A stretch of DNA of 64,000 bases from assembly GCA_903828955.1 (NCBI GenBank), contig CAIKOA010000014.1:6359-70358 (forward strand). The letters are read 5' to 3'. How positions within the stretch are numbered: the stretch's first letter is position 1; the number at the start of each line of letters is the position of its first letter. Of this stretch, positions 9,727 to 60,800 are shown piece after piece. The notes under the pieces were generated by a model. It was not told the DNA's origin. It searched no databases and saw nothing but the letters and a program-made list of their open reading frames with translations. This DNA comes from an uncultured Candidatus Micrarchaeota archaeon (lineage in GTDB: Archaea > Micrarchaeota > Micrarchaeia > Anstonellales > Bilamarchaeaceae). Position numbers and translations under genes: made by a program.

Positions 9727-10230
9727 ATGCAGCTGAGGGTTTTACATTCGCAAGATGCGCCCAGCCCCCAGCAGGCGGCTAAGAAAAAACGGGCTCTGCG
9801 CCCAACCAAACATTTCCACGAAGGAAAGCGAATTTATGCAAACGAATTCGGGCAGGAGTTCTTCTCAAGGTCTTTCCCCACAAAAGGGGAGGAAGGAAAT
9901 CGACGCACTATCGAGGTTCTTCAGCTGGGAGAAGGAGAGCCAATCGTCCGCTACTCCGCAAAAATCATGCTCATGGGGAAAGCCCTGAAGATAGAATATG
10001 CGGAAAGGGCAAGCGGGGGCGCTATCCCGCATTTATCCGGAGCGCATCCTTCCGGCTACCGCGCGATGCGCCTCATTCTTAACGAGGCAATTTCGCTTGC
10101 GCAGTCACTTGGCGCAAAAACGATATATGCCGAAGAGGCAAATTTCAAGGTTTCCTCCAATTATCTGTCGCTCGGTTTCAAAAAAATTCCAAACTCGGAT
10201 TACATGGAGCTACCAGTGCCTAAAGCATGA
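9727..10230 (+). CDS. Hypothetical protein, possibly a GNAT-like acetyltransferase C-terminal half
   Basis: ORF track. The C-terminal pattern (RLILNEAISLAQSLGAKTIYAEEANFKVSSNYLSLGFKKI) weakly resembles GNAT motifs. Confidence 0.4.
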   Translation: MQLRVLHSQDAPSPQQAAKKKRALRPTKHFHEGKRIYANEFGQEFFSRSFPTKGEEGNRRTIEVLQLGEGEPIVRYSAKIMLMGKALKIEYAERASGGAIPHLSGAHPSGYRAMRLILNEAISLAQSLGAKTIYAEEANFKVSSNYLSLGFKKIPNSDYMELPVPKA

Positions 10231-12279: not shown

Positions 12280-13492
12280 ACCTCAGTGCTTCCACGGCGG
12301 GCACCTTTGTTGCCTGCTCGGCCGGGTAAGTCCCTGCAACTATCCCTATTCCAACCGAAACCGCAAACGAAAGCCCCACCATGAACGCGGAGATTAATCC
12401 TGCGTATCCGAAAGTGGCAGCAATCTGGATGAAGACCCATCCTGCGGCTATCCCGAGAATTCCTCCGGAAAGGCCGATCATTGCGGATTCCATCAGGAAC
12501 ATGTTCCTTATCTGGGAAGAGGTTGCCCCAATCGCCTTCAGCACCCCTATTTCCCTTGTTCGCTCAAGCACGCTCATGAACATCGTATTCGAAATCCCTA
12601 TCCCGCCAACGATGAGTGAGATTGCGGAAACAAGCCCAAGAAATATTGTAAGAGTCCCCATGATCGCCGCTCTTTGCTCTTCCATGAATGTCGGGCTCAT
12701 CACCATGAAATCCTGGTCATCCGCGGTTACCTGGTGCGCCTGCTGGAGCGTCCATGTTATGTCCTCGGTCACCGTGGTGAGGTTGTATCCCTTTGCCATC
12801 TTCGCCTGGATGCGCGTCACTTCGTCATTTGCAAGGTCGGTTCCTGCAAGGGCGCGCGCATCATCTATAGGGAGATATGCCCTGCCCCCAAAGCCTCCTC
12901 CCCCGAACCCTCCGTTGTCTTCTGCGAGTATCCCAATTACGCGGTATGCCTTCCCGTCCAGATCTATCCTTGAATTCACCTTGACCTTTCCATTGAAGGT
13001 CCGGTCAACCACGCTGCTGCTAAGGAGGACGACCCCCCTGTCGCCTTTTTCAAGGTACCTGCCTTCGGAAAGGTTTCCAAGGGTGTTTGTTTTCAGGTAA
13101 GTTTCGGTGTCAACTCCAGTTATGGTCATTTTGGAAGTTTTGTCCCGATAAGCCACATCCACACTTACGCTGATAGAGGGCGAAACTGTCTCCACCCCAT
13201 TTACGCCCTTCACTATTTCAACATCCTTCATGTAGAGCTTGTCTGCGGATGAAGACCCTCCCTCTTCCCCAGGCGGCCCCCGCATTGCAGTACCGCCCGG
13301 GCTTATCGTGATTATGTCTGAACCCAGTTGGCTCAGCCTTGCATCTATGCTGGAACTGAGGCCGTCCACAAGCCCCACCAACAATATCACTGAGGAGATG
13401 CCGACCACTATCCCAAGCAGAGTAAGCCAGGTGCGCAGCCCCCTATGCCGCAGGTGGTGAAGCGCATATCCGAAAAGGTCCGGGAAGTTCAT
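12272..13492 (-). CDS. ABC transporter permease, MacB/FtsX family (paralog)
   Basis: Paralog of the adjacent permease. The start is placed at MNFPDLFGYALHHL by alignment with its partner; the ORF is open to 13552. Confidence 0.75.
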   Translation of the reverse strand: MNFPDLFGYALHHLRHRGLRTWLTLLGIVVGISSVILLVGLVDGLSSSIDARLSQLGSDIITISPGGTAMRGPPGEEGGSSSADKLYMKDVEIVKGVNGVETVSPSISVSVDVAYRDKTSKMTITGVDTETYLKTNTLGNLSEGRYLEKGDRGVVLLSSSVVDRTFNGKVKVNSRIDLDGKAYRVIGILAEDNGGFGGGGFGGRAYLPIDDARALAGTDLANDEVTRIQAKMAKGYNLTTVTEDITWTLQQAHQVTADDQDFMVMSPTFMEEQRAAIMGTLTIFLGLVSAISLIVGGIGISNTMFMSVLERTREIGVLKAIGATSSQIRNMFLMESAMIGLSGGILGIAAGWVFIQIAATFGYAGLISAFMVGLSFAVSVGIGIVAGTYPAEQATKVPAVEALRYE

Positions 13493-16192: not shown

Positions 16193-17005
16193 TTACTCGG
16201 TGTTGGGCACGAACTCCCCCTTGTGCCCGCCCATCCCCTTTGCTTGCATTCCTAAGCATTCCGCAGGAATAAGCGCATCAATCTGCGCCTTCAATTCATC
16301 TGCTTTTGCACTGTCCCCTGCATCCTTCGCAGTTTTCATCTGCCCCCTAAGGCTGGAAACCGCATCCTTATTGCCTTGCATTGCCTGCCTGCAAGTATCG
16401 TTCATTTGCGGAGGCATTCCTCCCATTCCAGGGGGTTGCCCTCCCTTCATCCCCATACGCACCCCGCACCCTTCAGGCATTAGTTGCTTGAGCTGCCCGC
16501 GCAATTCCCTTACGGTATCATTATCGCCGGATTCCATCGCGGTTTTTATCTGCCCCTGAAGTTGCGCAATCTGGTCCTTATTCTCCTCAAACGCCGCGGT
16601 GCAGTTCGCTTTCTTTTCCCCCATCAGGCTCTGCACAGTCTCCACCAGCTTGTCCTGGAGAACAACCGCCTCAACCCAGTTGCCGAGCTTTTGCGCATTG
16701 AATATCTGCGCCTTCAAATCGAACATTTGCGGAGTCGCAAAATCCATTTTCTTTCCGCCAAGCCCATATTCGTCATGTAGCTTCATTGCGGTTTCGTAAT
16801 CCCCCTCATGCGTTGCCTGCATGAACTCTGCGCGCGTTTCCACTGAAACATTCTGCATATTATCCGTTCCCTGCGGGCCCCCATCATGCCCAGCTCCCAT
16901 TCCGAACAGGTTTCCGAGTCCAAAATCCATTCCAAAACCCCCCCATGCAAAACTAGTGCCGAAAAGGCAGAGGATTGCAAGAAGCGCCTTATTTTTTCCG
17001 TTCAT
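16193..17005 (-). CDS. Secreted protein with internally repeated ~60-aa modules each carrying two Cys
   Basis: Signal peptide ALLAILCLFGTSFAWG and repeated N(C/D)T..C...KD....LRGQ(L/M)K...(PEG/PAE)C modules. Confidence 0.5.
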   Translation of the reverse strand: MNGKNKALLAILCLFGTSFAWGGFGMDFGLGNLFGMGAGHDGGPQGTDNMQNVSVETRAEFMQATHEGDYETAMKLHDEYGLGGKKMDFATPQMFDLKAQIFNAQKLGNWVEAVVLQDKLVETVQSLMGEKKANCTAAFEENKDQIAQLQGQIKTAMESGDNDTVRELRGQLKQLMPEGCGVRMGMKGGQPPGMGGMPPQMNDTCRQAMQGNKDAVSSLRGQMKTAKDAGDSAKADELKAQIDALIPAECLGMQAKGMGGHKGEFVPNTE

Positions 17006-17223
17006 TTGCCCCACCAAACTGAACGTCCGGGGCTTTTTATAAATACTTTTTCCAGAATAAGCCCCAAATTTACCCCAAATTACGCCGTAATAAGCTCTAA
17101 TTTCTGCCCTTTTTGAAAATTTTGCAGACTATCCGCTAAATCGGAAAAGGAAAAAGCCGCAGTTTTTTCAGTTCCCGCCCGGGGCGGAAATCCCAGAAAG
17201 GGAACCGATTCTGCGCGCTTAAG

Positions 17224-17694
17224 CTACCTTGAACTTACCCACGCAAGTATTGCGAGCGAAACGGTTGCAAAGAGCGGAGGGATTATCGAGAAAAGCCCCG
17301 GCCTCCCGAAAACCCCGAACAGCATGTGCAGGAGCGGATTTGCGCTTATCGCAAACAGCATGAACGAAATCACTGCGAGCAACACCCCGAGGGTGAAGCT
17401 GCTCCGGAGTTCCAGGTAGTCCTTCAGGTACACGAATATGAGGAATATGGAAATTATCAGCATTATCGTGGAAAGCGCCATGTCGATGTACATGTAGCTC
17501 GCCATAATCTCCCTCAAATCCTCGCGGTCCTCAAGCCCCTGAAAAGGAGTGAGCATGTTCGCAAGGAAGAATATCCCTATGCAGAAGGCGACTATCACCA
17601 GGGTAAAGCCTGCCGCCTTAAAACTGTAATTATTTCTTTTTTCCTTTTTTTCCGCTTTTTCGTTTTTCATTTTCATCACCATTTCCTTTTCCAT
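17224..17694 (-). CDS. Membrane protein, hypothetical
   Basis: ORF track; 4 hydrophobic helices. It overlaps the upstream wHTH gene by ~65 nt. Confidence 0.45.
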   Translation of the reverse strand: MEKEMVMKMKNEKAEKKEKRNNYSFKAAGFTLVIVAFCIGIFFLANMLTPFQGLEDREDLREIMASYMYIDMALSTIMLIISIFLIFVYLKDYLELRSSFTLGVLLAVISFMLFAISANPLLHMLFGVFGRPGLFSIIPPLFATVSLAILAWVSSR

Positions 17695-17971
17695 CCAAAA
17701 CTTCCTTCAGGAACTCGTTTTCTTCCCAGTCCGGGCTTATGAAAAGGACCTGCCCATAGCCTTGCTTCGGGGTATATACAATTCCATTCTCCACAAGCAT
17801 CTCTATGTGCCCCTGCACCGTCTTGTAATCCAGCGAAAGCGCTAGGGCGAGCTTCCTCAGATTCATGGGCTTATCGCTGAGCGTTTTCAGAATACGAATC
17901 CGCGTCGGCCCCCCCTTTGATGCGCTAAGCATCCAGTAGAGAAGCCGTGTTTTGGAATCCATCTGCAACAA
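17630..17971 (-). CDS. Winged-helix (ArsR/MarR-like) transcriptional regulator with a Lys-rich tail
   Basis: RIRILKTLSDKPMNLRKLALALSLDYKTVQGHIEMLVENGIV is a typical wHTH. Confidence 0.6.
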   Translation of the reverse strand: MLQMDSKTRLLYWMLSASKGGPTRIRILKTLSDKPMNLRKLALALSLDYKTVQGHIEMLVENGIVYTPKQGYGQVLFISPDWEENEFLKEVLDGKGNGDENEKRKSGKKGKKK

Positions 17972-18060
17972 TTAGTTCCGGCAGAATTTAAAAAGTGCGA
18001 ACATGCCATTGATAAAAAAACCTAAGAACTCACGAACCATTTTCCGGGATTATTGGTCGT

Positions 18061-18858
18061 TTGGCGCGCCCGCCGTTTTCCCCTTCTTTCGCAAGATTTA
18101 TATCCTTTCCCCGCGCACTCCTATCCGTGGAAGAGGAAAAGCAAAAGCCGAAGAACAGGCCGGTCCTTTTCGAACTGGACATAAACCACCTCTGCTGGTT
18201 CTGCGACATCACCGACAGGAACCCGGACGCCACTATTGTTTCCACCCTATCGCAAGTTGAAGGGGACCGGATAACCAACGTGATCCAGCTCAATTCCCCG
18301 GACCCGAAAAAAGACATTGAAAGGATGAAGGCGCACCCTCTCGTCAAAAGCGTGCAGGTCCTCACGATGTCCCAGAGCAGCGCTCTCCTGGTGGTGGTTT
18401 CCAGCTACAAGGCAATGACCTACAAACTCCTCCACCATACCAATGTGAAAATGCTGGAATCCCCCGTAACCCGGGCAGGGGTGGATTCCGAAATCCTCAT
18501 GGCGCCTTCCGACAAGGAGATGCGCGAACTGATAACCCGCTTCTCCGAGCACAAGGATTATGCAGATGTGAAACTCAAGAAGAAGAAGTACCTCAATCCA
18601 GAGGACGCGGTTTCGCTCAGCGCCTTCCGCACAAGCGGCTTCTTCGACCTGCAGTCCGCAAAGCAGCTCATCACTCCAAAGCAGCTGGAAATTTTCCAGC
18701 TTGCCTGCGACTATGGCTACTACGATATCCCGAAGAAAATCTCGATTGAGGAGCTCGCGGAAAAGACCGGGCTTTCCCCGTCCACCCTTGCGGAGCATTT
18801 GCGCAAAGCCGAGGCAAAACTCCTTCCCGTTTTCTGGAAAGTCATGAAAAAGCTCTAG
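18061..18858 (+). CDS. HTH_10 (bacterio-opsin activator/Bat-type) transcriptional regulator with N-terminal sensor-like domain
   Basis: C-terminal LTPKQLEIFQLACDYGYYDIPKKISIEELAEKTGLSPSTLAEHLRKAE is a canonical HTH_10. The precise start is uncertain. Confidence 0.65.
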   Translation: MARPPFSPSFARFISFPRALLSVEEEKQKPKNRPVLFELDINHLCWFCDITDRNPDATIVSTLSQVEGDRITNVIQLNSPDPKKDIERMKAHPLVKSVQVLTMSQSSALLVVVSSYKAMTYKLLHHTNVKMLESPVTRAGVDSEILMAPSDKEMRELITRFSEHKDYADVKLKKKKYLNPEDAVSLSAFRTSGFFDLQSAKQLITPKQLEIFQLACDYGYYDIPKKISIEELAEKTGLSPSTLAEHLRKAEAKLLPVFWKVMKKL

Positions 18859-18871
18859 AACTCCGGTAAAA

Positions 18872-18885
18872 CCGCTCTAGAGCGG
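18872..18885. promoter_or_regulatory. Perfect 14-bp palindrome CCGCTCTAGAGCGG, 38 nt upstream of the ATG of gene 18924; putative operator upstream of the TATA-like ACATATACAAG
   Basis: Seen directly. The same palindrome and the same 38-nt spacing recur at 19435-19448. Confidence 0.6.
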
Positions 18886-18923
18886 CATTACTAACATATA
18901 CAAGTTCACATAAATGTTATTCC

Positions 18924-19424
18924 ATGTACGAAATTCCGCTTAGGGGCAGAGGGGCAAAAGCGCTCAAATCCTCGCTCAGGGATGGCCTTCCCAATCAGTT
19001 TTATCCACTTGTTGACCGGATAGTAGGATGTACCAGGTTTTCATTAACGACATTGCGCATTCTTTCTGCATTCTTTGATGACATGAGGCCCAGCCCAGAA
19101 TGCCCCCCTGAAAAAATAATGAGGTGGAAGCGGGACACAATTGACTTTTTTAACTTTTTTCAACAGAAATGGGCTCGCTTGCGTACGGACGCGTTGTTAG
19201 CCCCTCTTAAAGATTATGCCAAGCATGTGGGCCTTGAAGATTATGCTGAGCAGGTAAGCAAGGGGGATAGGGAATCTCAACTCCAGCTCCTGCTTTTGGC
19301 TGCGCTCAAGGATTATGCCGAGTATGTCGGAGAGAGAGACAAGGAATTCCGGTTCCAGCTCCTGCTTTTGGCTGCGAGCATCGAAGCCGCAATCCCTAAA
19401 GAGAAAGCCCGGAGCGATCCCTGA
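18924..19424 (+). CDS. Hypothetical protein with tandem internal repeats (LKDYA(K/E)(H/Y)VG..D..... QLLLLAA)
   Basis: ORF track. It is preceded by the palindromic operator and is the first gene of the co-regulated module. Confidence 0.55.
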   Translation: MYEIPLRGRGAKALKSSLRDGLPNQFYPLVDRIVGCTRFSLTTLRILSAFFDDMRPSPECPPEKIMRWKRDTIDFFNFFQQKWARLRTDALLAPLKDYAKHVGLEDYAEQVSKGDRESQLQLLLLAALKDYAEYVGERDKEFRFQLLLLAASIEAAIPKEKARSDP

Positions 19425-19434
19425 TTGCCAGCAC

Positions 19435-19448
19435 CCGCTCTAGAGCGG
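19435..19448. promoter_or_regulatory. Second copy of palindrome CCGCTCTAGAGCGG, 38 nt upstream of the ATG at 19487, followed by CACTAAGAATATCTATAAGTT
   Basis: Seen directly. The downstream 38 nt align with the copy at 18886-18923 (CA.TA...A.AT.TA.AAGTT...A.AA.T.TTAT.CC). Confidence 0.6.
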
Positions 19449-19486
19449 CACTAAGAATATCTATAAGTTATTACAAGTATTTATCC

Positions 19487-21094
19487 ATGAATGACTCAGG
19501 CTCACAAGCATACGATTCAGTGAACAAGGCATGGAAATCTACCACCCGCGTCCTCTTGGGGGAAGAGATGGGCGAAATCCGCGAATACAAGGATTGGCTC
19601 CAGGAATACGGGCGCGCACCCAGGCATGAGAAGTCTTCGCTTTCAGGCAAGCCCGTCACACTTTCCCTGAACGAATACGGAAGCAACGCAAAGTTTATCG
19701 CTTTCAACGAAGTCGATTTCCAAAAGCGCTTTGCGCCCCTCAACATAAACGAGATTAAGGACATCGATTCCATAGTCGAGGCCCTGCAGGAGCGCTTCTG
19801 CTACGCAGGAGGGCTCACGCTCGGGAATTCCCGGTTCGTTGAAGGCAGCTCCGACATCCACAACTGCACTTACATCCTGGACTCCCACAACATAGTGGAT
19901 TCAAGCTACATCGCATGCACCTACATGGCGCGGGATTCTGAGATGCTTTTCGGATGCGACGCGATTGGGGAAGCAACGCATTCAATCCGCGGGCTGGAAT
20001 TATGGAAGAGCACCCGCTGCTTCGACGTTTTCGAAGTGAGGATGTCTTCCGACTGCTACTACTCGTTCAATCTGGAGAGCTGCCAGAACTGCTTCTTCTC
20101 CTTCAACCTCAAGGCGAAGAACTACAGTATCGGCAACCTGGAGCTGGGAAGGGATGCATACCTGAAAAGGAAGGAGGCGCTTCTCGAGGAAATCCGGGAC
20201 TCCCTTTCCAAAAAGAAGAAAGTTGCCGGAATCCTTGACATATTGCTCAATGCAAAAGACCGGAGCGCGGAAATCAAGGAAGAATTCGCGGAGGTTTCCA
20301 GGAAGGCCGAATACCACAAGGAGTTCTCGGATATGTCCGGAATCGACAAGGTTTTCTCCGGAACCTCCCAATTGCTTCTTGGGAAGGCGCTCGGCCCGAT
20401 CAAGGCATACGAGCCGTGGCTATCAAGGCACGTGCTCATGCCGGAATTCTACAAATCCGCAATAAGCGGGAAGCAGGCTGTGCTTACCAGCTACTCCAAA
20501 TTCGGGAGTTTCCCGAGAAACCGGCTGGTTGCCCTTGAGGAGGCGCCCCTTCTCTCGTGCCTGAAACTCAGCCAAAAGGAATGCGATTCCATTTCGATTT
20601 CATCGGCTCCTGAATACATCGGGAAGCTCGCTTACTCGACCGGGGATGCGGACATCCAGAACGCCCGGATGGTCGATTGCTGCATGATGGGATTTTCCTC
20701 CAACTGCTACAAGTGCACAGTGGCTCCGGATGTGAAGAATTCCGGGTGCTCGTTCTGGCCGCGGGCGTCCGAAAGCATATTCGGCTGCCATTCCAGCCAC
20801 GAATCCAAGTTCGTCATAAACGGGTATTTCTCGAGCAAGATCTCCCGCGCCTTCGAAGTGGATTTGTGCAGGGACTGCTCCGATATTTACTTCTCGCACA
20901 ACTGCGAGGCGATGCAGGATGCGATGTTCTGCTTCAACGCAAAGAACCTGAAGAAGGCGATAGGGAACGTGCAGTACCCGATAGAGGAATACAAGCGGTT
21001 CAAGTCCTCCCTTCTGGAGCAGATTTCCGGGGAGCTTGAGAAAACCAAATCCCTCCATTTCGACATCTATAGCATAGGCTCCGCAGAGGCGTAA
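19487..21094 (+). CDS. Uncharacterised Cys-rich protein, paralog A (two internally duplicated Cys-rich modules separated by a charged coiled-coil linker)
   Basis: ORF track; no recognisable family. Conserved modules end in NC..C..(F/M)(F/C)(S/F)FN.K(A/N)...IGN. Its stop lies 2 nt before the start of paralog B. Confidence 0.7.
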   Translation: MNDSGSQAYDSVNKAWKSTTRVLLGEEMGEIREYKDWLQEYGRAPRHEKSSLSGKPVTLSLNEYGSNAKFIAFNEVDFQKRFAPLNINEIKDIDSIVEALQERFCYAGGLTLGNSRFVEGSSDIHNCTYILDSHNIVDSSYIACTYMARDSEMLFGCDAIGEATHSIRGLELWKSTRCFDVFEVRMSSDCYYSFNLESCQNCFFSFNLKAKNYSIGNLELGRDAYLKRKEALLEEIRDSLSKKKKVAGILDILLNAKDRSAEIKEEFAEVSRKAEYHKEFSDMSGIDKVFSGTSQLLLGKALGPIKAYEPWLSRHVLMPEFYKSAISGKQAVLTSYSKFGSFPRNRLVALEEAPLLSCLKLSQKECDSISISSAPEYIGKLAYSTGDADIQNARMVDCCMMGFSSNCYKCTVAPDVKNSGCSFWPRASESIFGCHSSHESKFVINGYFSSKISRAFEVDLCRDCSDIYFSHNCEAMQDAMFCFNAKNLKKAIGNVQYPIEEYKRFKSSLLEQISGELEKTKSLHFDIYSIGSAEA

Positions 21095-21096
21095 AC

Positions 21097-22695
21097 ATGA
21101 ATTCCCAGAACTACGAAGTCCTGAATAGGGCGTGGAAATCCACCTGCAAGGTGCTCTTTGGCGCGGAAATCGGCGACATGAAGGAATACGAGCCCTGGCT
21201 CCTTTCCGGAGTGGACGCCCCCATGAAGAAGAAATCCGCGGTTTCCGGCAAAGATGTTTATGTGGGAATTGAGTTCTACAAGGATGAAAGCAGGTTCATA
21301 GGGCTGGATGAGATTGATTTCAATAAGAAATTCCAGCCCCTCAACATAAACGAGGTTAAAGACATCGACAGCATCGTTGAATCATTGCAGGAAAGGTTCC
21401 TCTACACCGGAAACATCGTCCTTGGAAATTCCCAATTCGTAGAAAAAAGCTCGAACGTAATCGATAGCTCATACATTTACAATGCAACCGAGCTCGTTGA
21501 TGCGAAATACATCGCCCACCTCACCTGCGCCCCTGAAAGCGAATACTGCTTTGGCTCGAATGGCGCAGGGGTGAGCAAGCAGTGCATCCACATATACGAA
21601 ACATTCGACTGCAACCGCTGCTTAGAAATCTGGAATTCGAGAAGCTGCGCAGACGGCTACTTCACCTACAACTGCGACGGGTGCAGGGAAACCTTCTTCA
21701 CGTTCAATTCCTACGGAAAAAAGTACTCTGTCGGAAATCTCGAACTTGACAAGGACAAGTACCTCCAATTGAAGAAGAAACTAATAGAAGAAATCCGGGA
21801 AGAGCTCGTTTCCAAAAAACAGCTCAAATCTCTAATGGACATCATTTCCTCGGCAAAGGAATACAGGAAAGAGAACGAGGAGCTCAAGCAGATTCTGAAG
21901 GGGCACAAGTTCGAAGAGCCCCGCGCAAACAAGGAACTGGTCGAAAAGGAGTTTTCGGAAACCGCCGCGATTCTTTTCGGAAAGCCGTTGCACGGAATCG
22001 ACAACTATTCCAGATGGCTGAGCCGCAACATCTGGGAGCGCAATGAATGCAAGTCCGCCCTCACCGGGAGAAGGACCGTGGTTGTGGATTACTGCAACCT
22101 TGGAAGGATTCCGGAGCCGCGCCTGATCCGTAAAGACGAGTGGGAAGTGGTAAAAGAGAAAATGAAATTGAGCGCAGAGGACGTTGATTCCCTCACCCTG
22201 AAGAATGCCGGGGAAACAATAGGGAAAATCTCCTACCTTCCCTTCGACTACAATACGAACAGCACGAACATGATTGATTGCACGACCACCCTCAATTCCG
22301 CGGACTGTTATCTTGTGTTGCCTGCGATATTCTCAAAGAAATCCGGGGTTTGCACCTGGATAAGGCATTCCTCGGATGTATTCGGCTGCTGCGCGGGATT
22401 CCATTCCTCCTTCTGCATGAAAATCAACTACTCCAAGAAGATGAACCGCTGTTTCGAAACCGATAATTCCAGCGGATGCTCCGGGGGCTACTTCCTGCAC
22501 AACTGCGAGAACGTGAACGATTCCATGTTCTGCTTCAATATGAAGAACCTCCGGAACGCAATCGGGAACGCCCCTCTCCAGCTGGATAAATACAAGGCGG
22601 TAAAGTCTTCCCTCCTTGAGCAGATGCATTCCGAACTCGAGAGAAACAAGGAGCTCAAATGGGACATTTACAACATCGGATGCCTTTCAGAGTAG
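21097..22695 (+). CDS. Uncharacterised Cys-rich protein, paralog B (tandem duplicate of 19487..21094)
   Basis: It is clearly alignable to paralog A along its full length (MN.Q.Y..LN.AWKST..VL.G.E.G...EY..WL..., LNINE(I/V)KDIDSIVE(A/S)LQERF, C-terminal SSLLEQ...ELE..K.L..DIY.IG). Confidence 0.7.
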   Translation: MNSQNYEVLNRAWKSTCKVLFGAEIGDMKEYEPWLLSGVDAPMKKKSAVSGKDVYVGIEFYKDESRFIGLDEIDFNKKFQPLNINEVKDIDSIVESLQERFLYTGNIVLGNSQFVEKSSNVIDSSYIYNATELVDAKYIAHLTCAPESEYCFGSNGAGVSKQCIHIYETFDCNRCLEIWNSRSCADGYFTYNCDGCRETFFTFNSYGKKYSVGNLELDKDKYLQLKKKLIEEIREELVSKKQLKSLMDIISSAKEYRKENEELKQILKGHKFEEPRANKELVEKEFSETAAILFGKPLHGIDNYSRWLSRNIWERNECKSALTGRRTVVVDYCNLGRIPEPRLIRKDEWEVVKEKMKLSAEDVDSLTLKNAGETIGKISYLPFDYNTNSTNMIDCTTTLNSADCYLVLPAIFSKKSGVCTWIRHSSDVFGCCAGFHSSFCMKINYSKKMNRCFETDNSSGCSGGYFLHNCENVNDSMFCFNMKNLRNAIGNAPLQLDKYKAVKSSLLEQMHSELERNKELKWDIYNIGCLSE

Positions 22696-24690
22696 TATTT
22701 GCCCCCTCTTCATTTTTTTTACCGGGCTCTTCTCTTCCTTCTCAAGCTTGCTTGCGCTCGCCTTGTCAATTATGGATTCAGGAAGGCTGAGCCTTTCCTT
22801 GAATGGAGAAGCAACCTCTCCTCCATCTCCTCCATCTGGATCCTCACCAGGCCCGTCTCCCGGCCCCTTTCCCTTTTCTCCAGAAGGCGAAGGAGGGGGT
22901 TCCGGAGGAACATAAACCGGAAGCGCATTCTCGTCGAACCCCCACTTCTTCATGTCCACAACCTTGAGTTTCATCGGAAGGAGGTAATTCACCCCATCGT
23001 AGAGCCTTGCAATGCACTCCCGCTGGTTGAGCCGGACAAACATCTCTTTCTTGGATTCCTCCAGCTCGGTCTGCCCGCGGTGCTTCTTGAAGTATTCCTC
23101 CAGCTTAATCTCCATCACCGAACTCAGGAGCGCCGCATCCTGCCGATTCAACTTGAACGCAACAATGTTCCTCACGTTCGAAACCATGCTATCCACGATC
23201 TCCTTGCTCAATTGGGAGAGGTACTGGCACGAGAAGTACGCGTATAGGTTGAACTTCCTGGTCTCGGAAAGGATGTCCCTTGCCACCTTGGTCTCAATCC
23301 TTGGGAACTCATCCATCACAAGTATGGTAGGCTTATCCATGAGCTTCCCGCTGATTGCAAGCAGGTACATCTGGTTTATGATCGCCCCGGAAAGGAAGCT
23401 TATCATCCTCCTTCCGAAGAACTTCGGGTCGAAGGACACAACCGTAATCCTGTTCTTCTGAATCAATTCCAGGAGGTTCTCCTGCTTCTTCTCCTTCCCA
23501 AGGTATAACTGGTATTCCCCGATGAAGTTCAATATCGGCAATATCGCGGTATTGAAGTGGTGTATGTAGATGTCATTGTACTCCTCATCGAAGAACCTCT
23601 TCACCTCATCGTTGTCGCACATGCTGACGAATTCCGCCTTTACCGTAGCATCCGTAAGCAAAGAGCTGATGTTCGTAAGTTCGAGCTTGTCTATTGAACT
23701 CAGGAGGTGCACCGCGTAGAACAGCACACGCTCCGAGTACTTGTTCTCCTGCCCAATCGAAGAGGCAAGCAATTGCGAAACCAGCTGCGTAAGCATCGGA
23801 GTCTTCTCCTTGCCCACATCCAGCGGCTCCACGAAATTGGTCACGAAGTTGACGAGCTTAGCCTTAGGGAAAAGGCGCACGAACTCTCCGTGCGGGTCGA
23901 TTATGAGTATCCTTGCCCCTTCCTTGTATTTCTGCTCAATCGCCTTCAACATGACGTATAACGCCTTGCTCTTTCCGGAACCCGAAGTTCCCACCACAAG
24001 GGTGTGCTGGAGAGAATCGAAATTATCCACTCCCATGCTAAAGCCGGTATCTTCGAAAACGGGAAAATTGGAGGTTGTCTGTATCCTTTTCGGCAGTGGG
24101 TCAAGCACCTCGATGTATACAGACGGGTTCTCCTCCAAATTTACCCTAAAAAACTTATGCGGCTCGGTAACCAATACCGCCCTTTTCCTGCCCTTCTCAT
24201 CCGTGGCTGACCCTACTGCCACAAAGCCCCCGAGAAACTTGGTGAAGCCCAGGTCGAGCTCCTCCATGTTTTCCTTGAGCATGAAATCCAGGAAATCGTA
24301 GCTGCCTCCCCCTATCTTATAGAACTTTGAGAGGGGCGTTCCCACCGCTTCCTGGAGGTCCATCTTCTTCGCATCCCCGAACCTGAAGGGGAAAACGAGC
24401 GCGGACTGGCTCTGGAGGTGCTTCCTCTCCTCTATGAAGAAGGATACGGTATTGTTCTTCCTCTTTACAATGAGCCTGAACGCATTCGGGGAAAACACCG
24501 AAGAAAAATCCAGGAACCCCAGAATAGGAACCCTGGGCTTTGCCATCTGGTTGAAGAAAGCCAGTATGTCCTCGGGCTCGACCTTCTCAGAATAGAGGAA
24601 CATCTCCCTTGCCGAGAGGGGCCCCCCAGTGAGGGTTTCATCCCTTGTAAGGGAAATCTTCATCCCGATTGGAAGCTTTATTTCTGCCAT
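22687..24690 (-). CDS. HerA/FtsK-superfamily P-loop ATPase (COG0433/DUF87-like) with C-terminal Pro/Gly/Asp-rich low-complexity tail
   Basis: Walker A VVGTSGSGKSKA, Walker B ILVMDEFPR. The ~230-aa N-terminal region may be a HAS-barrel. The 3' end overlaps paralog B convergently by 9 nt. Confidence 0.7.
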   Translation of the reverse strand: MAEIKLPIGMKISLTRDETLTGGPLSAREMFLYSEKVEPEDILAFFNQMAKPRVPILGFLDFSSVFSPNAFRLIVKRKNNTVSFFIEERKHLQSQSALVFPFRFGDAKKMDLQEAVGTPLSKFYKIGGGSYDFLDFMLKENMEELDLGFTKFLGGFVAVGSATDEKGRKRAVLVTEPHKFFRVNLEENPSVYIEVLDPLPKRIQTTSNFPVFEDTGFSMGVDNFDSLQHTLVVGTSGSGKSKALYVMLKAIEQKYKEGARILIIDPHGEFVRLFPKAKLVNFVTNFVEPLDVGKEKTPMLTQLVSQLLASSIGQENKYSERVLFYAVHLLSSIDKLELTNISSLLTDATVKAEFVSMCDNDEVKRFFDEEYNDIYIHHFNTAILPILNFIGEYQLYLGKEKKQENLLELIQKNRITVVSFDPKFFGRRMISFLSGAIINQMYLLAISGKLMDKPTILVMDEFPRIETKVARDILSETRKFNLYAYFSCQYLSQLSKEIVDSMVSNVRNIVAFKLNRQDAALLSSVMEIKLEEYFKKHRGQTELEESKKEMFVRLNQRECIARLYDGVNYLLPMKLKVVDMKKWGFDENALPVYVPPEPPPSPSGEKGKGPGDGPGEDPDGGDGGEVASPFKERLSLPESIIDKASASKLEKEEKSPVKKMKRGQILL

Positions 24691-24748
24691 TTTGACCCAC
24701 CTTTAAGCACAATCTATTACTAAGCGCCACTTGGATATATTCTTAGTG

Positions 24749-24762
24749 CCGGTGTAGAGCGG
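24749..24762. promoter_or_regulatory. Degenerate third copy of the palindrome (minus-strand reading CCGCTCTACACCGG) followed by CACTAAGAATATATCCAAG, ~58 nt upstream of the ATPase ATG at 24690
   Basis: Seen directly. The 3' half-site and downstream CACTAAGAATAT are identical to the 19435 copy. Confidence 0.5.
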
Positions 24763-24821
24763 TCTTTTGAAACTTCCACAAGCAAACATTTAAAAACACT
24801 ATCATTGATAATATATATTAT

Positions 24822-26420
24822 ATGTCCACCGAGGGAAGGAAACCAGGCATACCTTCGTTTTTGCTTTCACCCCCCAGCTGGAAGGCCGTCGGAAACACCC
24901 CCCTTATCAAGGTAAAAGAGCTTTGCGGGGCGTGCAACGGGGCGACCGTCTATGTGAAGGACGAGAGCAAGAACCGCTTCGGAACCTTCAAGGACAGGCG
25001 CTCGGCAGCCCTTTTTGAGCACTACAAGGACAAATCCGAGATCGTTTTCGTCCACATCACTTCCGGAAACTCCGGCTACAGCCTCGGGATGATGGCCGAG
25101 GAGGAGCGGAGAAGGACCAAAAAAGACATACGGGTAGTCAACATCATCGATAAGGGAACTCCGAAAACCATCCGCGAAAGGCTGGAATCATGTTCAAAGG
25201 TCGTTGAGATGGACCTCTCAAGCGGGCAGATGGGGCTTGATGAGCAGAGGGAGCTCGGGAGGTCCGCAGCGTCTTATGAGGGCCACCAGAGCAACATCGT
25301 CGGGGTGGAGGAATACCACATTGCAAACGGCTACAGCAACATACTGCGTGAGATTTATGCCGAAGGGATAAGGCCAAAATACGTCTTTTGCCCGGTCGGA
25401 AACGGGGAGCTCCTGGTTGAACTTGCGGATGTCGCAAAGGAATTGTGGGGTTACGACGCCCCATTAATCGTCGGAGTTACTATTCAGCAGAACATCCTGC
25501 ACCGCGCAGCGGACTTTGTCTCAAAAATAGGGAGGAGCATCGCAGACAAGCTCGTTGCCCCATACTCAATGTACAAGGAACTCGTGGAGGCCCGCGTGAA
25601 AGATGGAAGCGCGGAATTGATGAAGAAACACCCGAAAGAGGACGAAATCGCAAAGGAATACGAACGCCTCAACCGGATAGGCATAAATGTGGAGCCTTCC
25701 GCGGCGGTCGCCTTCTGGGGCGCAAAACACTACGAACTCACCCAAGACGATACAGTCGTAATCATTAATACTGGTAAGGGAGTTTACGACCCTTCCTCGC
25801 TCAATAAGGTCTGGAAGTACATGCTGAAGCCCAGATTGAAGAAGCTGGGGCTGGTTGCGGCAGGTGCGCTCCTCTCCCTAGGAATAGTGTTCGGAAACAA
25901 TCAATATGAAAAATACAAATCCCATGAGCACTTCAACCTTGCTACTCAGGTATCGCTTATTTCCGAAACCGGAGGCTTTTTCCGCACGGATGTGAAGAAA
26001 TTGCAAACATTGTGCATGAACATCCCGGATATGACTAAGGAGAGGTGCGGAGAAATTCGTTCCGCGTCCGACTTAACCGATAGGGAGCTCCAGTTCCTTA
26101 TCTACTGGGACGGGCTCAAAGATGACAATGCGAACATGGGGCTCCGCCTCATGGCAAGAGAGTGGTACCTCAAATATAATGGGCAGGGCCCGGATCGCCG
26201 CAAGGCTTGGATGCCATTAGATGATAACGAGCCGGAAGAATACGAAATGTACCCTGATGGTTCCATAAAACAGGCATCAAGAAAAACAACCTTTGATTTC
26301 ATGTCGGGCAGGGAAAGGCACGAATACACGTTTGGGCCAACTCCTCCCCCATCCATGACCGGCTACCCATGGGGCTCTGATACAGGCCCTGGCAATCCTG
26401 CTTCTGCCCCTAATAAGTAG
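24822..26420 (+). CDS. Fold-type II PLP-dependent enzyme domain (cysteine synthase/threonine synthase-like) fused to a TM segment and a ~170-aa C-terminal domain of unknown function
   Basis: GNTPLIKV and TFKDRRS (PLP lysine) motifs and ITSGNSGYSLG glycine loop. Then KLGLVAAGALLSLGIVFG as a TM helix, then an unrecognised domain. Confidence 0.65.
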   Translation: MSTEGRKPGIPSFLLSPPSWKAVGNTPLIKVKELCGACNGATVYVKDESKNRFGTFKDRRSAALFEHYKDKSEIVFVHITSGNSGYSLGMMAEEERRRTKKDIRVVNIIDKGTPKTIRERLESCSKVVEMDLSSGQMGLDEQRELGRSAASYEGHQSNIVGVEEYHIANGYSNILREIYAEGIRPKYVFCPVGNGELLVELADVAKELWGYDAPLIVGVTIQQNILHRAADFVSKIGRSIADKLVAPYSMYKELVEARVKDGSAELMKKHPKEDEIAKEYERLNRIGINVEPSAAVAFWGAKHYELTQDDTVVIINTGKGVYDPSSLNKVWKYMLKPRLKKLGLVAAGALLSLGIVFGNNQYEKYKSHEHFNLATQVSLISETGGFFRTDVKKLQTLCMNIPDMTKERCGEIRSASDLTDRELQFLIYWDGLKDDNANMGLRLMAREWYLKYNGQGPDRRKAWMPLDDNEPEEYEMYPDGSIKQASRKTTFDFMSGRERHEYTFGPTPPPSMTGYPWGSDTGPGNPASAPNK

Positions 26421-26536: not shown

Positions 26537-26621
26537 CGCCGAGGAGGAGATTTGAACTCCTAAGCCCCAGAGGGGCACCAGATCTCAAGTCTGGCGCGTT
26601 ACCGGATTCTGCCACCTCGGC
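26537..26621 (-). tRNA. tRNA-Ser (anticodon TGA), type II with long variable arm
   Basis: The reverse complement GCCGAGGTGGCAGAATCCGGTAACGCGCCAGACTTGAGATCTGGTGCCCCTCTGGGGCTTAGGAGTTCAAATCTCCTCCTCGGCG has a 7-bp acceptor stem, an anticodon arm CCAGA-CTTGAGA-TCTGG, a variable-arm hairpin GCCCC/GGGGC and a T-arm GGAGG-TTCAAAT-CCTCC. The D-stem pairing is weak in my reading. Confidence 0.8.
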
Positions 26622-57820: not shown

Positions 57821-60800
57821 CTAAAACCGATATCCCCCAAAGAGGATGAAACCCCCATAAATCTCTTTTGTCCTGCTCGTATCAAGTTGCCCGAGCCGGT
57901 CCCTGAACACTCTCTCGATGCTTCCGACTACTCCTTTTCCCCCAAGGTACCAGTCTTCATTGCTGGAAGTGGTCCGGACCTCTACCCCGCCCTGGTCAGT
58001 AGTCTCTTCGTAGTGGGTAATGGCGCTTCCTCTTTCCCTGGCCATCATTTCCCTTCTAAGATACTCGAGATCGACAGTAAAGGTAACTCCGGAGTGCCCT
58101 ACCCACATCAGCCTGAGGCCCGGGCTATACCTGATTGTGTCAAGGTCCTCTACCATTTGGTAAGTATTTGTCCCGAGCTCTTTTGAGAGCGCCAGATACG
58201 GTTGCACACGGCCTGGATAAGGGGCTCCCTTCCACCACGGCGTCCAGCCAAGAACCATGGCTTCGTAAACATTTCTCGTGACGTCAACTTTAGCGGTGCT
58301 GGCCCCAGGTTCCAACATTCCAGTAACGCTGCTGGATCCCGTGCCGGTAGGATATTCCGTGCCGGTAGGATATTCCGTAGTCCCGGTAGGCTTATACTCC
58401 AATGTTCCGCTGCGCCACATGCCGCCGACTATCGCCCCGATTCCCCAATCGTTCTCGGGAAGAGTCACGAATCCCACATCGAAATTCGGCAATCCCTTGG
58501 TGCTCCTTAAATCCTTTCTCCAATATTCCCCTGCCGCAAGCGCGAGTATGACGTGCGTTAATGGAACGACTACTTTCCCCCCTGCGGAGCCCCAGGGCGC
58601 AGGCTGGATGTTGAACGAGAGCGCGAATGCCCGGTCAACCTCGACATATGAGTTAATCAGTGCGCTCCACTGGGCAGGCCCGCCCCATATCGCTTCAATC
58701 CCCGCCCTTGTCGTCTTATCCAGCGAGTTCCATTCTATTCCCGCGGTTCCAAAGTAACTTTGCACTTCAATGAGCCCAAGTGCGGTCTGCATCGTCCGCA
58801 GAAGGGTCTGCTTTCTTTCCAGCTCGGTTATTGCCTGGCTCCTGGACATCGCCTGGTCCAGCCTCCCCGAATAAATAAGCTCGTCACTCTGCCTGCTCGC
58901 GCGGAGGTCCTGCAAGTCAGCCTCCACTCCGCGCAGTTCTGAGACCACTTTCTTCAGGCTCCACTGTGTTTCCATCAGCTGCCAGAGGCTGCTTCCCTGG
59001 AATCTTCCACTGTTCCATTCTGTCGCGCCAAGAACTCCCGCACTGCTTACCTGGCCGCTTCTTTCAGCCGCTCTTTCCGAGAGCTGCCTCCAGTCCCCGA
59101 CAAGGAACGCATCGATTATTCCCGGATCCCTATACATCGTGCCAAGCAAGCCGGAATTGCTCTCATCACTGCGTATCTGCGCCATTGCAAGGGTGTAGAG
59201 CTCATTTCCCCCTGGAAGCGCGGGAACATTTGCCCCCTGCCATGCAAAAGTGTATTCCATTGCACTGTCTATCCAGGATTTCTCGGCTGCAAAACCAACC
59301 TCTGCCCCCCTTTCCCCTATTTTTATCTTTCCGACCCTGTCCACTGTTCCGCCGCCCCAGAACTTTTCCGTTTTTCCTGCGGGGGCTTCTCCAGGCGTTG
59401 TTTCCCCTATGGTAGAAGTGGCGGAACCCCTTTGGCTCTCATCAGTTTTTACTTCCCTCCCAACAAGGGTGACGAATCCTACCGCATTCTTCATGCCTAA
59501 GAAACCTTTCTCGAAAAGGACGCTTATCCCTCCAGCATATTCCTTTGCTATCCTTTGTGCATCCCCTTCTTGCACCACCTTCCCCTGTTCATCCACCTGT
59601 TCCCCTCTTTCAAGGGTTGGCAGCGGCTCCAGGAGATTCGTCCTTGAAATGGAAGGCCTTCCTCCGGCGTTATATAGCGTCGCCCCAACCACTGAAGGCG
59701 AAGCCGGCGGAGGAGCCCCTCCTGTGAATAAATTTGTGAAATTCACCCCTATCAGGCAGCCGTACATATGCCAATTCTGCTCAGCGCCCGGAACCTCCGC
59801 ATTTGTTCCCGCTGCCTGCTCAACGCCCGAAACTTCATTAGGAGCTCCTCCCACTTTATACTTCTGCTTTCCAAAGAGCCCCCTGACGCTCCCGTACTGT
59901 TCACCAGGCCCTATCTGGAATCCGGTGAATAGCCTTTGGACCTGCTCAGGGTCAAGGTCTATGTATCCAATCCTGTACCAGTCGCCCTTGATCCTTCCCC
60001 AGGTATACGCCCGTAACTCTTTCTCCGTAGGAATATTCTCTTCTGTTGTTGTAACCCCCGCCGTGGTAGTTTTTGTGACGTCTTCCTGCTCCTTTGCAAC
60101 TATCAGGGTTACCCCATCGGTATTGTGTTCCCGGGCATAATGCTCCAGCTGCGCCGTGATATTCTTATCGCTGACTTTTTGGTATGTTCCCTCTTCCCCA
60201 TGATAAATAAACGGCACGGGCTCTTGTAGCGGGTATTTTTTCTTTGTCGACCCCGGGGGCACACCCGGCTGAACAGTAGTAGGGGTCACACCCGGCTCAA
60301 TAGGAGGAGGGGGCACAATATCTGCAGGGGTTTTTGTTTCGCTTGTAGTTTCACCCCAGGTGCCGTTGACGCTTCCCGTAAACGAAACCCATCCGGGATA
60401 ATTTAAATCATTGAAAAGCGCATTGACACCCTGCCTTTCCTGCGTTGTCATTGTTTGCTCTGGAGGAGTGTATGTCTGTTCTGCGCCCTCGCCTTCCCAT
60501 CTTCCCTCAGCATTAGACTCGGTTGTCCCGGTTGTCACCGTATGAGCTCCGGCCGCCTTTGTCACCGGGCCGAACGCATATATTCTTTCAGTGCCCGTAT
60601 ATTTTGACGCGCTCTCGCTTCCTGTTTCATCCTCTACCGATTGTGCAGAGCCAGAGCCTCTTGCGTCAACCCCGGCGCGCTCTAGCCCCATGCCAGGCAC
60701 GTACCTTGGATATGGCACATCGGAGAGCAGTTCAAACAGCCTGCTGAGAGAGCCCGGGATGAAGCTGTTTACCCCATAGGTCCTCTCCGGAAGCAGTTTC

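Follow-up and report, generated by a model that had tools for sequence, protein, structure and literature searches.

Gene organisation of the locus

A block of about 9 kb in the window (the whole 64,000-nucleotide stretch of DNA analysed here) encodes an HTH_10-family regulator, a small protein termed ORF166, two tandem paralogs of about 530 amino acids, a P-loop ATPase and a PLP-dependent enzyme fused to a membrane segment (Table 1). An earlier note, made from the sequence, had proposed that this block is a co-regulated module, and every open reading frame that it described was recovered. Paralog B starts 2 nt after paralog A, which places the two in the same operon. The paralog B and ATPase genes are convergent, with 3′ ends that overlap by 9 nt, and the PLP enzyme is encoded divergently from the ATPase.

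Table 1. Features of the block, with positions in the window
Feature	Position	Strand	Description
wHTH + DUF8036 membrane-protein pair	17224-17971		outside the conserved module, though within the interval first noted
HTH_10-family transcription regulator	18127..18858	+	Pfam HTH_10 (PF04967) E 8.9e-20
Operator O1	18872..18885	.	palindrome CCGCTCTAGAGCGG, exact copy
ORF166	18924..19424	+	small protein, restricted distribution
Operator O2	19435..19448	.	palindrome CCGCTCTAGAGCGG, exact copy
Paralog A, 535 aa	19487..21094	+	double beta-solenoid family
Paralog B, 532 aa	21097..22695	+	double beta-solenoid family
P-loop ATPase, 667 aa	22687..24690	-	Pfam DUF87 E 4.5e-12, TrwB_AAD_bind E 1.9e-9
Operator O3	24749..24762	.	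minus-strand copy, 2 mismatches to CCGCTCTAGAGCGG
PALP plus membrane fusion, 532 aa	24822..26420	+	Pfam PALP E 1.4e-28
tRNA gene	26537-26621

The neighbourhood had been described as housekeeping, and the block is indeed flanked by housekeeping or transport genes. A comparison of GC content, suggested at the same time, found no difference between the block (0.48-0.53) and its flanks. Typical GC and housekeeping synteny argue that the block is not an island. These features also bear on the idea that it is the remnant of an integrated virus or plasmid, with the ATPase as a packaging or conjugation motor and the solenoid proteins as fibre or capsid-associated proteins. The ATPase has weak PHROG matches (phrog_7035 4.5e-14; terminase-like 8e-6), and a tRNA gene lies nearby, both in keeping with such an origin. 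However, Pfam and a repeat search of the window found neither an integrase nor an att repeat nor any other viral gene in the block, there were no matches in IMG/VR, GenBank phages or BFVD, and the chromosomal synteny is conserved within a distribution restricted to Micrarchaeota. We consider a remnant extremely improbable.

A family of double beta-solenoid proteins

The two tandem proteins are paralogs with duplicated modules, as had been proposed. They share 41% identity (E 5e-148), and their N-terminal and C-terminal halves are homologous (E 2e-22), each paralog being an internal duplication. AlphaFold predicts each protein as two narrow beta-solenoids with 12-residue coils and Cys/Ser ladders, in which the short stacked coils of a narrow solenoid are present, together with helical caps and an N-terminal helical domain. 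The modules had also been called Cys-rich; the duplication holds, but the solenoid cysteines are mostly not invariant and exchange with Ser, Ala or Val at the 12-residue period. Near-invariant polar residues are E457, H471, N472 and E474, and a conserved motif with the consensus DIYNIG lies at the extreme C-terminus. In some genomes the family is split into separate N-half and C-half genes. It has no match in Pfam, NCBIfam or PADLOC, and we found no description of it in the literature, Micrarchaeota genome papers included. Based on the predicted models, the family is a previously undescribed pseudo-dimer of two solenoid modules.

Individual family members diverge rapidly. Orthologs of paralog B with 78-80% identity occupy the ATPase-proximal position in two loci (L014 and L055), and these genomes have no paralog A ortholog exceeding 42%. 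Identity between paralogs levels off at about 40% (35-45%), whereas the ATPase, which evolves slowly, spans 45% to 80%. Even among close genomes there is turnover in paralog content. This plateau and turnover fit the behaviour expected of interchangeable partners.

The ATPase and its possible roles

The ATPase is a soluble P-loop protein of the FtsK/HerA/VirB4/TrwB superfamily, with a beta-rich N-domain (residues ~25-220), a core with a helical insertion (~225-590) and a disordered tail of acidic/Pro/Gly character (602-667). Both Walker motifs, A (GTSGSGKSKA) and B (DE, residues 460-461), are invariant. The earlier assignment to HerA/FtsK ATPases lacking NurA was right about the missing NurA; the fold, however, is nearest to VirB4, DptH and TrwB, with HerA after those. 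By analogy with these motors, the protein would assemble as a ring. No NurA, nuclease, Sir2 or membrane partner accompanies it, and the 77 loci considered below share no recurrent NurA-like family. Its nearest structural relatives, VirB4, DptH and TrwB, function in conjugation, secretion and defence rather than metabolism, an observation that counts against the nutritional reading put forward below.

One alternative is protein export or effector delivery, with a VirB4/T4CP-like ATPase as motor or receptor and the solenoid paralogs as cargo, acting at the cell surface or towards partner cells. Known analogues are the effectors of T4SS, and the T7SS ATPase EccC with its Esx/PE/PPE substrate arrays. 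TraG-D_C and T4SS-DNA_transf gave weak Pfam matches in 8-11 of the 44 orthologs, the tandem family arrays with their birth-and-death turnover resemble effector repertoires, and the C-terminal DIYNIG motif could be a recognition signal. Against this, the ATPase has no transmembrane anchor (no hydrophobic segment on inspection, and a beta-rich, soluble N-domain in the AF2 model), and its neighbours include no conserved channel or membrane component. The family proteins show no signal peptide, and inspection of the paralog A sequence revealed neither a signal peptide nor a transmembrane segment. The regulators of the clusters point to metabolic signals, and the carriers include the Anstonellales and Gugararchaeales, for which a rich metabolism and possibly a free-living life are described (PMC8561730). 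Export is unlikely in our judgement.

The earlier note had instead considered a role in defence or in DNA/RNA processing plausible, and this part of it found no support. An antiviral or anti-plasmid system would here combine a HerA/DptH-like ATPase with variable effectors or sensors, as in HerA-Sir2 (Nezha), HerA-DUF4297, DndFGH or MADS. PADLOC does match the ATPase (mad8 E 1.1e-11, and several HerA models weakly), but the matches are partial, mostly cover the P-loop region and, like those of NCBIfam, score far below the cut-offs; ORF166, the paralogs and the PALP protein gave none. The number of partner-family copies varies and the family turns over fast, 36 of its 57 members weakly match phrog_15341, a viral family without a known function, and one locus (L004) has a type I R-M system 5 kb away. 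On the other hand, the solenoid partners have no nuclease or NADase fold, and no nuclease, NADase, Sir2, NurA-type or other recognisable effector domain was detected. The family is absent from IMG/VR and GenBank phages. Patchy mobile defence islands differ from a Micrarchaeota-only ATPase of 45-75% identity in stable synteny, with no compositional anomaly and with metabolic-type regulators beside the cluster. Taken together, a defence role seems decidedly unlikely.

A shared operator and its candidate regulator

A 14-bp palindrome followed by a TATA-like box lies ahead of three transcription units (ORF166, paralogs A-B and the ATPase), in agreement with the claim that three promoters share one operator. 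The window contains four matches at ≤2 mismatches against 0.20 expected, a count reached in 0/100 shuffles. O1 and O2 have identical spacing, exactly 38 nt before the ATG of ORF166 and of paralog A, respectively; O1 is directly followed by CATTACTAACATATAC (BRE/TATA-like) and O2 by CACTAAGAATATCTATAAG. O3, on the minus strand, reads CCGCTCTACACCGG, is followed by CACTAAGAATATAT and lies 58 nt before the ATPase ATG, in a promoter with a GGTGG Shine-Dalgarno-like leader and in a divergent intergenic region common to the ATPase and PLP-enzyme genes. An operator immediately upstream of the BRE/TATA region is in a typical activator position.

About 12 other species carry the operator before the ATPase and also before the first family gene, in flanking sequence that has diverged. 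The O2-equivalent site is kept before the first family gene in L007, L010, L011, L012, L015, L017, L021, L023, L055, L059, L065 and L069, and at least 18 other species keep the O3 site ahead of the ATPase, often with a PALP gene in the divergent layout seen here. Comparison of these promoters indicates a shared cis-element at all module promoters, kept in the orthologous promoters of other species. The clade with the operator represents only part of the distribution of the module.

The regulator has a GTG start and 243 amino acids, and the same 243-aa gene was called in an independent assembly. It consists of an N-terminal region of ~170 aa without an assigned domain and a C-terminal HTH_10 domain. 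The label 'Bat-like', which had been given to it, goes beyond this: HTH_10 was the only domain found, and GAF and PAS had no Pfam match at E <= 0.1. Orthologs of the regulator adjoin the module in 26 loci, and HTH_10 and operator co-occur (15/4/10/48, p = 1.8e-6), although this association is confounded by phylogeny. We infer that the HTH_10 protein is a candidate binder of the palindrome.

In a close relative (L084), the same HTH_10 and operator stand ahead of an AlaE-like exporter, and the regulon also includes a secreted-looking protein. In other clades Lrp/AsnC or TrmB regulators adjoin family genes, and module clusters always come with regulators (HTH_10, tandem Lrp/AsnC, TrmB). Because of Lrp/AsnC, TrmB, the PLP enzyme and the AlaE-like exporter of the relative, the identity of the neighbours points to nutritional or amino-acid control of the module.

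Recurrence across Micrarchaeota

The ATPase has orthologs at 45-75% identity in 77 species-level genomes, every one from Micrarchaeota, usually as one copy per locus and in housekeeping synteny. Conservation of the solenoid family beside the ATPase had been named by the earlier note as a test for a functional system. Of the GTDB species loci, 45 have flanks of ≥5 kb to either side (the full-flank set); a family gene adjoins the ATPase in 40 of these, and is found within 2 kb in 37, which have 1-10 family copies in that interval. Loci in which family genes adjoin the ATPase ortholog include L001, L003, L004/L005 and L006. De novo clustering of open reading frames beside the ATPase recovered the solenoid family in 62 loci, HTH_10 in 26, the PALP-TM gene in 17 and tandem AsnC/Lrp in 15; the remaining families recur in at most 8 loci each, TrmB (5) among them, and other members of this tail look like local synteny.

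The pairing of ATPase and family gene holds where the ATPases are only 45-50% identical, with different regulators and in co-directional, overlapping or convergent orientation, and everything else in the surroundings changes between loci. Adjacency kept amid changing surroundings is the pattern expected of functional coupling. Judged by this recurrence, the block is a real gene module found across Micrarchaeota, and the adjacency in 40/45 loci, together with the operator kept in other species, bears out the earlier proposal of a single regulon and a functional system.

Not all loci follow this arrangement. Solo family copies occur away from the ATPase (L002), five of the 45 full-flank loci have no family gene within 10 kb of the ATPase, and no fixed paralog stays beside the ATPase, so there is no co-evolution signal. 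These observations weigh against the main explanation given below.

ORF166 and the PLP-membrane fusion recur less widely. ORF166 (166 aa) had been described as internally repeated, and a 72-nt tandem duplication is present in its gene (19239-19376), with 76% identity over 66 nt. Only two homologs were found: P0386 (86% identity), a near-identical strain variant without the 24-aa repeat, and P0387 (36% identity, E 1e-22), whose gene also comes after an HTH_10 gene and the same operator. ORF166 was absent from all 77 ATPase loci. The fusion protein joins a PLP-dependent enzyme (PALP fold type II) to a transmembrane segment and a C-terminal domain, and its weak threonine-synthase and cysteine-synthase matches in NCBIfam are far below the cut-offs. 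It has orthologs of 37-42% identity in L001 and L003, and the PALP-TM gene is present in 14/45 full-flank loci. On these distributions, both proteins are accessory rather than core.

Such variation could reflect shared regulation without a shared mechanism, that is, a loose HTH_10 regulon responding to one signal (e.g. amino-acid status), in which the ATPase and the solenoid proteins act independently and stay together by inherited synteny. The different regulon content of relatives such as L084, the solo family copies and the ATPase being tied to no particular paralog would all agree with this. Inherited synteny, however, accounts poorly for an adjacency that persists at 45-50% ATPase identity despite changed regulators, orientations and surroundings, and we regard a merely regulatory association as improbable.

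A model for the module and its significance

We favour, with a probability of about 0.5, a lineage-specific co-regulated module, nutritionally controlled, in which the ATPase works with solenoid proteins that are interchangeable partners or cargo, and which does not serve antiviral defence. Its conserved core is a soluble ATPase, with a fold matching the ring-forming translocase motors of the VirB4/DptH/TrwB/HerA type, and one to about ten solenoid-family genes. The HTH_10 regulator would bind the palindrome and act as an activator, driving the three promoters of ORF166, the paralog A-B operon and the ATPase. Within the module, the ATPase may physically work with the solenoid proteins as interchangeable adaptor or effector subunits or as cargo, recognising features common to all paralogs, while the cell would pick the paralogs to express through HTH_10, Lrp/AsnC and TrmB regulators that sense nutritional or amino-acid status. 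The role of the module would then lie in lineage-specific physiology.

A more far-reaching version, which we hold to be possible though unlikely, is a new Micrarchaeota machine: a VirB4/DptH-like ring ATPase would load, unfold or translocate a diversifying solenoid repertoire, as a non-canonical delivery route or a new conflict or immunity system, with dedicated regulators setting the choice of paralog.

Genomes of Micrarchaeota and other DPANN archaea are very small. Even so, some that bear the module give up to about 15 kb to the family, the highly conserved ATPase and dedicated regulators, which implies an important, currently unannotated function. The module offers several handles, namely a protein family whose members are fused or split, a putative pairing of regulator and operator with a phylogenetic footprint and the hypothesis of an ATPase-solenoid complex. 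Solving it would annotate hundreds of 'hypothetical' genes, and might show the HerA/VirB4 motor class in a new use.

Comparison with known systems

The module shares with HerA-NurA a central ATPase domain (DUF87/PF01935), matched in the window ATPase and in 44/44 orthologs, albeit only over profile positions 24-79 of 220, around the P-loop. In contrast to HerA-NurA, HerA-Sir2/Nezha and HerA-DUF4297, it has no detectable HAS-barrel (no Pfam match in the window ATPase or 44 orthologs at E <= 0.1, at the sequence level), NurA, Sir2 or DUF4297. NurA is usually found with Mre11/Rad50, whereas the neighbours of the present ATPase are paralog B and the PALP enzyme. In fold, VirB4 and DptH are nearer to the ATPase than HerA is, the NCBIfam helicase_HerA model gives 21 bits against a cut-off of 970, and the partner, in place of a nuclease or NADase, is a beta-solenoid that occurs as 1-10 diverging copies.

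The C-terminal ATPase fold of VirB4 is present in the module ATPase, but the VirB4 N-domain family (CagE_TrbE_VirB) has no Pfam match in the window protein or its orthologs, and TIGR00929 (VirB4_CagE) reaches 18 bits against a cut-off of 643. T4SS membrane/pilus, relaxase or conjugation genes are neither present in the window nor recurrent in the 77 loci. The TrwB/VirD4 coupling proteins have a membrane anchor and are associated with relaxase or conjugation genes; this chromosomal, Micrarchaeota-only ATPase has neither, and no mobile-element genes are seen at its locus. Compared with DndFGH, the module lacks DptF/DptG and Dnd modification genes, and its ATPase is much shorter than DptH; MADS resembles it in mad8, with no other MADS component in the module, and in both cases scores are far from family level.

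The regulator shares the C-terminal HTH_10 domain of haloarchaeal Bat, but lacks GAF/PAS, and its putative palindromic target comes from comparative genomics. The narrow solenoid fold is also seen in the Tenebrio antifreeze protein TmAFP and in curli CsgA, at 6-8% identity only; neither has the near-invariant polar residues of the present family, which is apparently cytoplasmic and is set apart by its helical caps, N-terminal helical domain and tandem duplication.

A conserved ATPase-solenoid gene pair

A P-loop ATPase and a family of double beta-solenoid proteins of ~530 aa form a conserved, co-localised gene pair, with a footprinted operator common to both promoters. Transcription regulators consistently accompany this pair. 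GTDB species representatives were scanned with an alignment of the ATPase, which yielded 77 loci, all in Micrarchaeota; neighbourhoods were counted in the 45 loci whose flanks extend for 5 kb or more in each direction. Solenoid family genes lie within 10 kb of the ATPase in 40 of these 45 loci and within 2 kb in 37, and amount to 1.5-15.5 kb of DNA per locus (1 to ~10 copies). The earlier note had proposed a co-regulated block of ~9 kb at 17224-26420, and in this central respect, the recurrence of the 530-aa proteins beside the ATPase, its proposal is borne out.

Few other families recur at this position. In unsupervised clustering of all ORFs from the 77 loci and the window, the solenoid family is found in 62 loci (225 members), followed by the HTH_10 regulator (26 loci), a PLP-dependent enzyme/membrane fusion (PALP-TM, 17 loci) and a tandem Lrp/AsnC regulator (15 loci). 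The remaining families, TrmB regulators (5) among them, reach at most 8 loci each. Of the 45 full-flank loci, 20 carry HTH_10 and 14 carry PALP-TM.

Paralog A has at least 428 homologs of ~520-545 aa, none with a Pfam domain, and the ATPase has 199 at 50-74% identity; the named ones are all from Micrarchaeota in both cases. Family genes adjoin an ATPase ortholog in four unrelated assemblies (loci L001, L003, L004/L005 and L006), and L002 carries a solo family copy away from the ATPase. Gene orientation differs between genomes, being co-directional with overlapping genes in L004, with a separate promoter in L001 and convergent in the window; the adjacency of ATPase and family is kept despite these changes.

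Gene content and surroundings of the block

Features of the block in the window, and split-gene pairs of the solenoid family in related loci
Feature	Position	Strand	Remarks
wHTH (ArsR/HTH_5-like) and DUF8036 membrane protein pair	17224-17971	-	wHTH gene overlaps start of DUF8036 gene
HTH_10 regulator, 243 aa	18127-18858		PF04967, E 8.9e-20
ORF166, internally repeated protein of 166 aa	18924-19424		
Paralog A, 535 aa	19487-21094		tandem with paralog B
Paralog B, 532 aa	21097-22695		tandem with paralog A
P-loop ATPase, 667 aa	22687-24690	-	convergent to paralogs; DUF87, E 4.5e-12; TrwB_AAD_bind, E 1.9e-9
PLP-fold enzyme fused to membrane segment	24822-26420		divergent from ATPase; PALP, E 1.4e-28
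tRNA gene	26537-26621		
Split-gene pairs	L001:16522-21168; L003:4436-5886 and 18091-21169; L006:16481-18006		

Composition and homologs assign the window to Micrarchaeota (DPANN). The comparison of GC content between block and flanks proposed in the earlier note gave a flat profile throughout, and composition is unremarkable. The flanking genes encode a MacB/FtsX ABC transporter, PurA, a DHH phosphoesterase, exosome subunits and ribosomal protein L1. A foreign island is rejected, as GC is flat and neither an att repeat nor an integrase is present; a mobile-element origin of the module itself is also unlikely.

The wHTH and DUF8036 pair was found in only 3 of the 78 clustered sequences (the window plus two ATPase loci) and is therefore placed outside the conserved module, though inside the block. 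ORF166 was found in none of the 77 ATPase loci. Its internal repeat, already described in the earlier note, is a 72-nt tandem duplication (19239-19376). The near-identical metagenomic variant P0386 lacks the repeat and aligns with zero substitutions outside it, so the duplication is a strain-level polymorphism.

Two further ORFs were observed in the window. A Met/Gly-rich protein of 274 aa with a hydrophobic N-terminus (16193-17017, minus strand) carries two to three repeats of a 'Q..GQ(I/L)K.A...GD......L+.Q(L/I)..L(M/I)PE.C'-like motif and gave no confident Pfam match. An ORF of more than 2,059 aa (57821-64000, minus strand) continues past the window end.

A shared operator and its candidate regulator

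The palindrome CCGCTCTAGAGCGG occurs in exact copies at 18872 and 19435, and a third copy at 24749-24762, read on the minus strand as CCGCTCTACACCGG, differs from it by 2 mismatches. With up to 2 mismatches allowed, the window holds 4 matches against 0.20 expected, a number reached in 0 of 100 shuffles; the single operator that the earlier note had attributed to three promoters is thus real. The fourth match, at 53290 within an ORF, is probably due to chance. Each promoter copy precedes a BRE/TATA-like sequence of the CAYTAnnAATAT type. At copies 1 and 2 the ATG is exactly 38 nt away, which implies leaderless transcripts; at copy 3 the ATPase ATG is 58 nt away and the leader carries GGTGG.

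Archaeal activators usually occupy palindromes directly upstream of BRE/TATA. The HTH_10 protein may bind the palindrome and, given this position, activate transcription, the two forming a candidate regulator-operator pair. Autoregulation of HTH_10 is rejected, since the full palindrome is absent upstream of 18127.

Within the clade with ATPases ~60% or more identical to that of the window, the motif CCG[CT]T-N4-A[GA]CGG, followed ~8 nt on by ATATAT, was footprinted upstream of the ATPase gene in no fewer than 18 species, often in the same divergent layout with the PALP-TM gene. It also stands upstream of the first family gene in 12 loci (L007, L010, L011, L012, L015, L017, L021, L023, L055, L059, L065 and L069), where it directly follows the end of the HTH_10 gene, as in the window. 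Motif and HTH_10 presence are associated (15/4/10/48, Fisher p = 1.8e-6); both are clade-restricted, so their co-occurrence is not independent evidence of binding.

Regulon content is plastic, since its members differ in the close relative L084. On this contig (Logan SRR29278633; L084:1000-2290) a close ortholog of the HTH_10 gene stands ahead of three others, which encode an ORF166 homolog, an AlaE-like exporter (PF06610) and a protein whose N-terminus resembles a signal peptide. The same palindrome lies before each of the three (CCCGCTCTGGAGCGG, CCCGCTCTAGAACGGG, CCCGCTGTAGAGCGGG). Judging by L084, the HTH_10 regulon may be linked to amino-acid handling. In L001 and L003, TrmB regulators are interleaved with other paralogs that have different palindromes (TGACATATGTCA; GACCCCnCCAGGGG), which suggests that separate paralogs are controlled by separate regulators. 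Sites with different palindromes (TGACAnATGTCA; GACCCCnCCAGGGG) lie at L003:8290-8380, 9960-10000 and 12480-12570, and at L001:9960-10000.

A distinct branch of HerA/VirB4-class ATPases

Walker A and Walker B are invariant across 44 orthologs. In the AF2 model (pLDDT 79) a beta-rich N-domain is joined to a RecA-like core that bears a helical insertion, and the tail is disordered. This C-terminal tail is acidic and Pro/Gly-rich with a Lys-rich terminus (22687-22880), and varies in length, orthologs ranging from ~565 to 990 aa (P0178, P0190, P0194). Matches to sequence models are confined essentially to the P-loop region, and all family-level cut-offs are widely missed (CedD, 34 bits against 600; HerA, 21 against 970; VirB4, 18 against 643); the PADLOC model mad8 is matched at E 1.1e-11. 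At sequence level, no HAS-barrel, TM anchor or NurA was found in the window ATPase, its orthologs or the 77 loci, in agreement with the earlier description of a HerA-like ATPase lacking NurA. With these features missing and the cut-offs not reached, the protein is best placed, on sequence, in a distinct Micrarchaeota-specific branch of the HerA/FtsK/VirB4/TrwB superfamily. A canonical HerA-NurA system is rejected, neither HAS-barrel nor NurA having been found at sequence level.

The double beta-solenoid family

Paralogs A and B share 41% identity (E 5e-148), and each is an internal duplication whose N-half aligns with its C-half at E 2e-22. In the AF2 model (pLDDT 86.3, pTM 0.87) each half combines a helical N-part with a beta-solenoid and a long capping helix. 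The tandem paralogs and the duplication reported in the earlier note therefore stand. In the Cys-rich modules, Cys columns recur every 12 residues with i/i+3 pairs, and most are swapped for Ser, Ala or Val, so that a reading of these modules as Fe-S or Zn clusters is rejected. Only C464, C473 and C482 are conserved at ~90% or more, and together with H471 they could form a single metal site. The C-half holds an invariant cluster of polar residues (E457, H471, N472, E474), and the N-half a highly conserved segment, PLxINEIKDIDSIxEALxERFxYTGN. The family is also encoded as split genes, tandem ~256-aa proteins in up to three consecutive pairs, always with the N-half-like gene first and the C-half-like gene second.

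The solenoid proteins are covered by no database family searched. Pfam, NCBIfam and PADLOC gave nothing consistent for both paralogs or for all 57 aligned members, a sequence-profile search of the PDB gave no match, and Foldseek against BFVD gave nothing significant. The half-length viral family phrog_15341 is weakly matched by 36 of the 57 members (best E 7.6e-8); as the C-half has no tblastn match among GenBank phages and a scan of IMG/VR with the family alignment found no relative, this relationship is remote or repeat-based. In an exhaustive HMMER search, 348 clusters passed E <= 1e-30 and 1,978 passed E <= 1e-3; the best 150 of the 1,978 are all full-length family members.

Evolutionary tempo and possible function

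ATPase identity among loci ranges from 45% to >80%, and the best cross-genome identity of the family is 35-45% whatever the ATPase identity, with only occasional orthologs at 78-82%; within a locus, the median identity of paralogs is 37%. Paralog turnover is uneven between ATPase-proximal paralog B and operator-proximal paralog A. For paralog B, L014 and L055 contain orthologs of 78-80% identity in the same ATPase-proximal position, whereas paralog A reaches at most 42% in every GTDB representative, L014 and L055 included, its sole close relative being one metagenomic protein (77%). L007 and L008, with ATPases of equal similarity, carry different paralogs. These identities reflect old paralog subfamilies in birth-and-death evolution around a slowly evolving motor.

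Such a variable repertoire of partners, like the structural neighbours of the ATPase, would suit antiviral defence by ATPase and solenoid proteins, which the earlier note had considered plausible. This role is not supported: the ATPase is strongly conserved and restricted to Micrarchaeota, synteny is of the housekeeping type, composition is ordinary and effector domains are absent. We propose instead that the solenoid proteins are interchangeable partners or cargo of the ATPase, which would act with or on them. A serious alternative is that a T4CP/VirB4-like motor exports the solenoid proteins, but membrane components that would support this are missing. The Lrp/AsnC and TrmB regulators, the PLP enzyme and the AlaE-like exporter suggest that the module of ATPase and solenoid partners may be under nutritional control.

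No mention of the module was found in the literature searched, Micrarchaeota genome papers included. An ATPase with an adjacent partner is itself a known theme of HerA/VirB4-class systems; what is new here is the partner family, together with a defined regulon beside such an ATPase.
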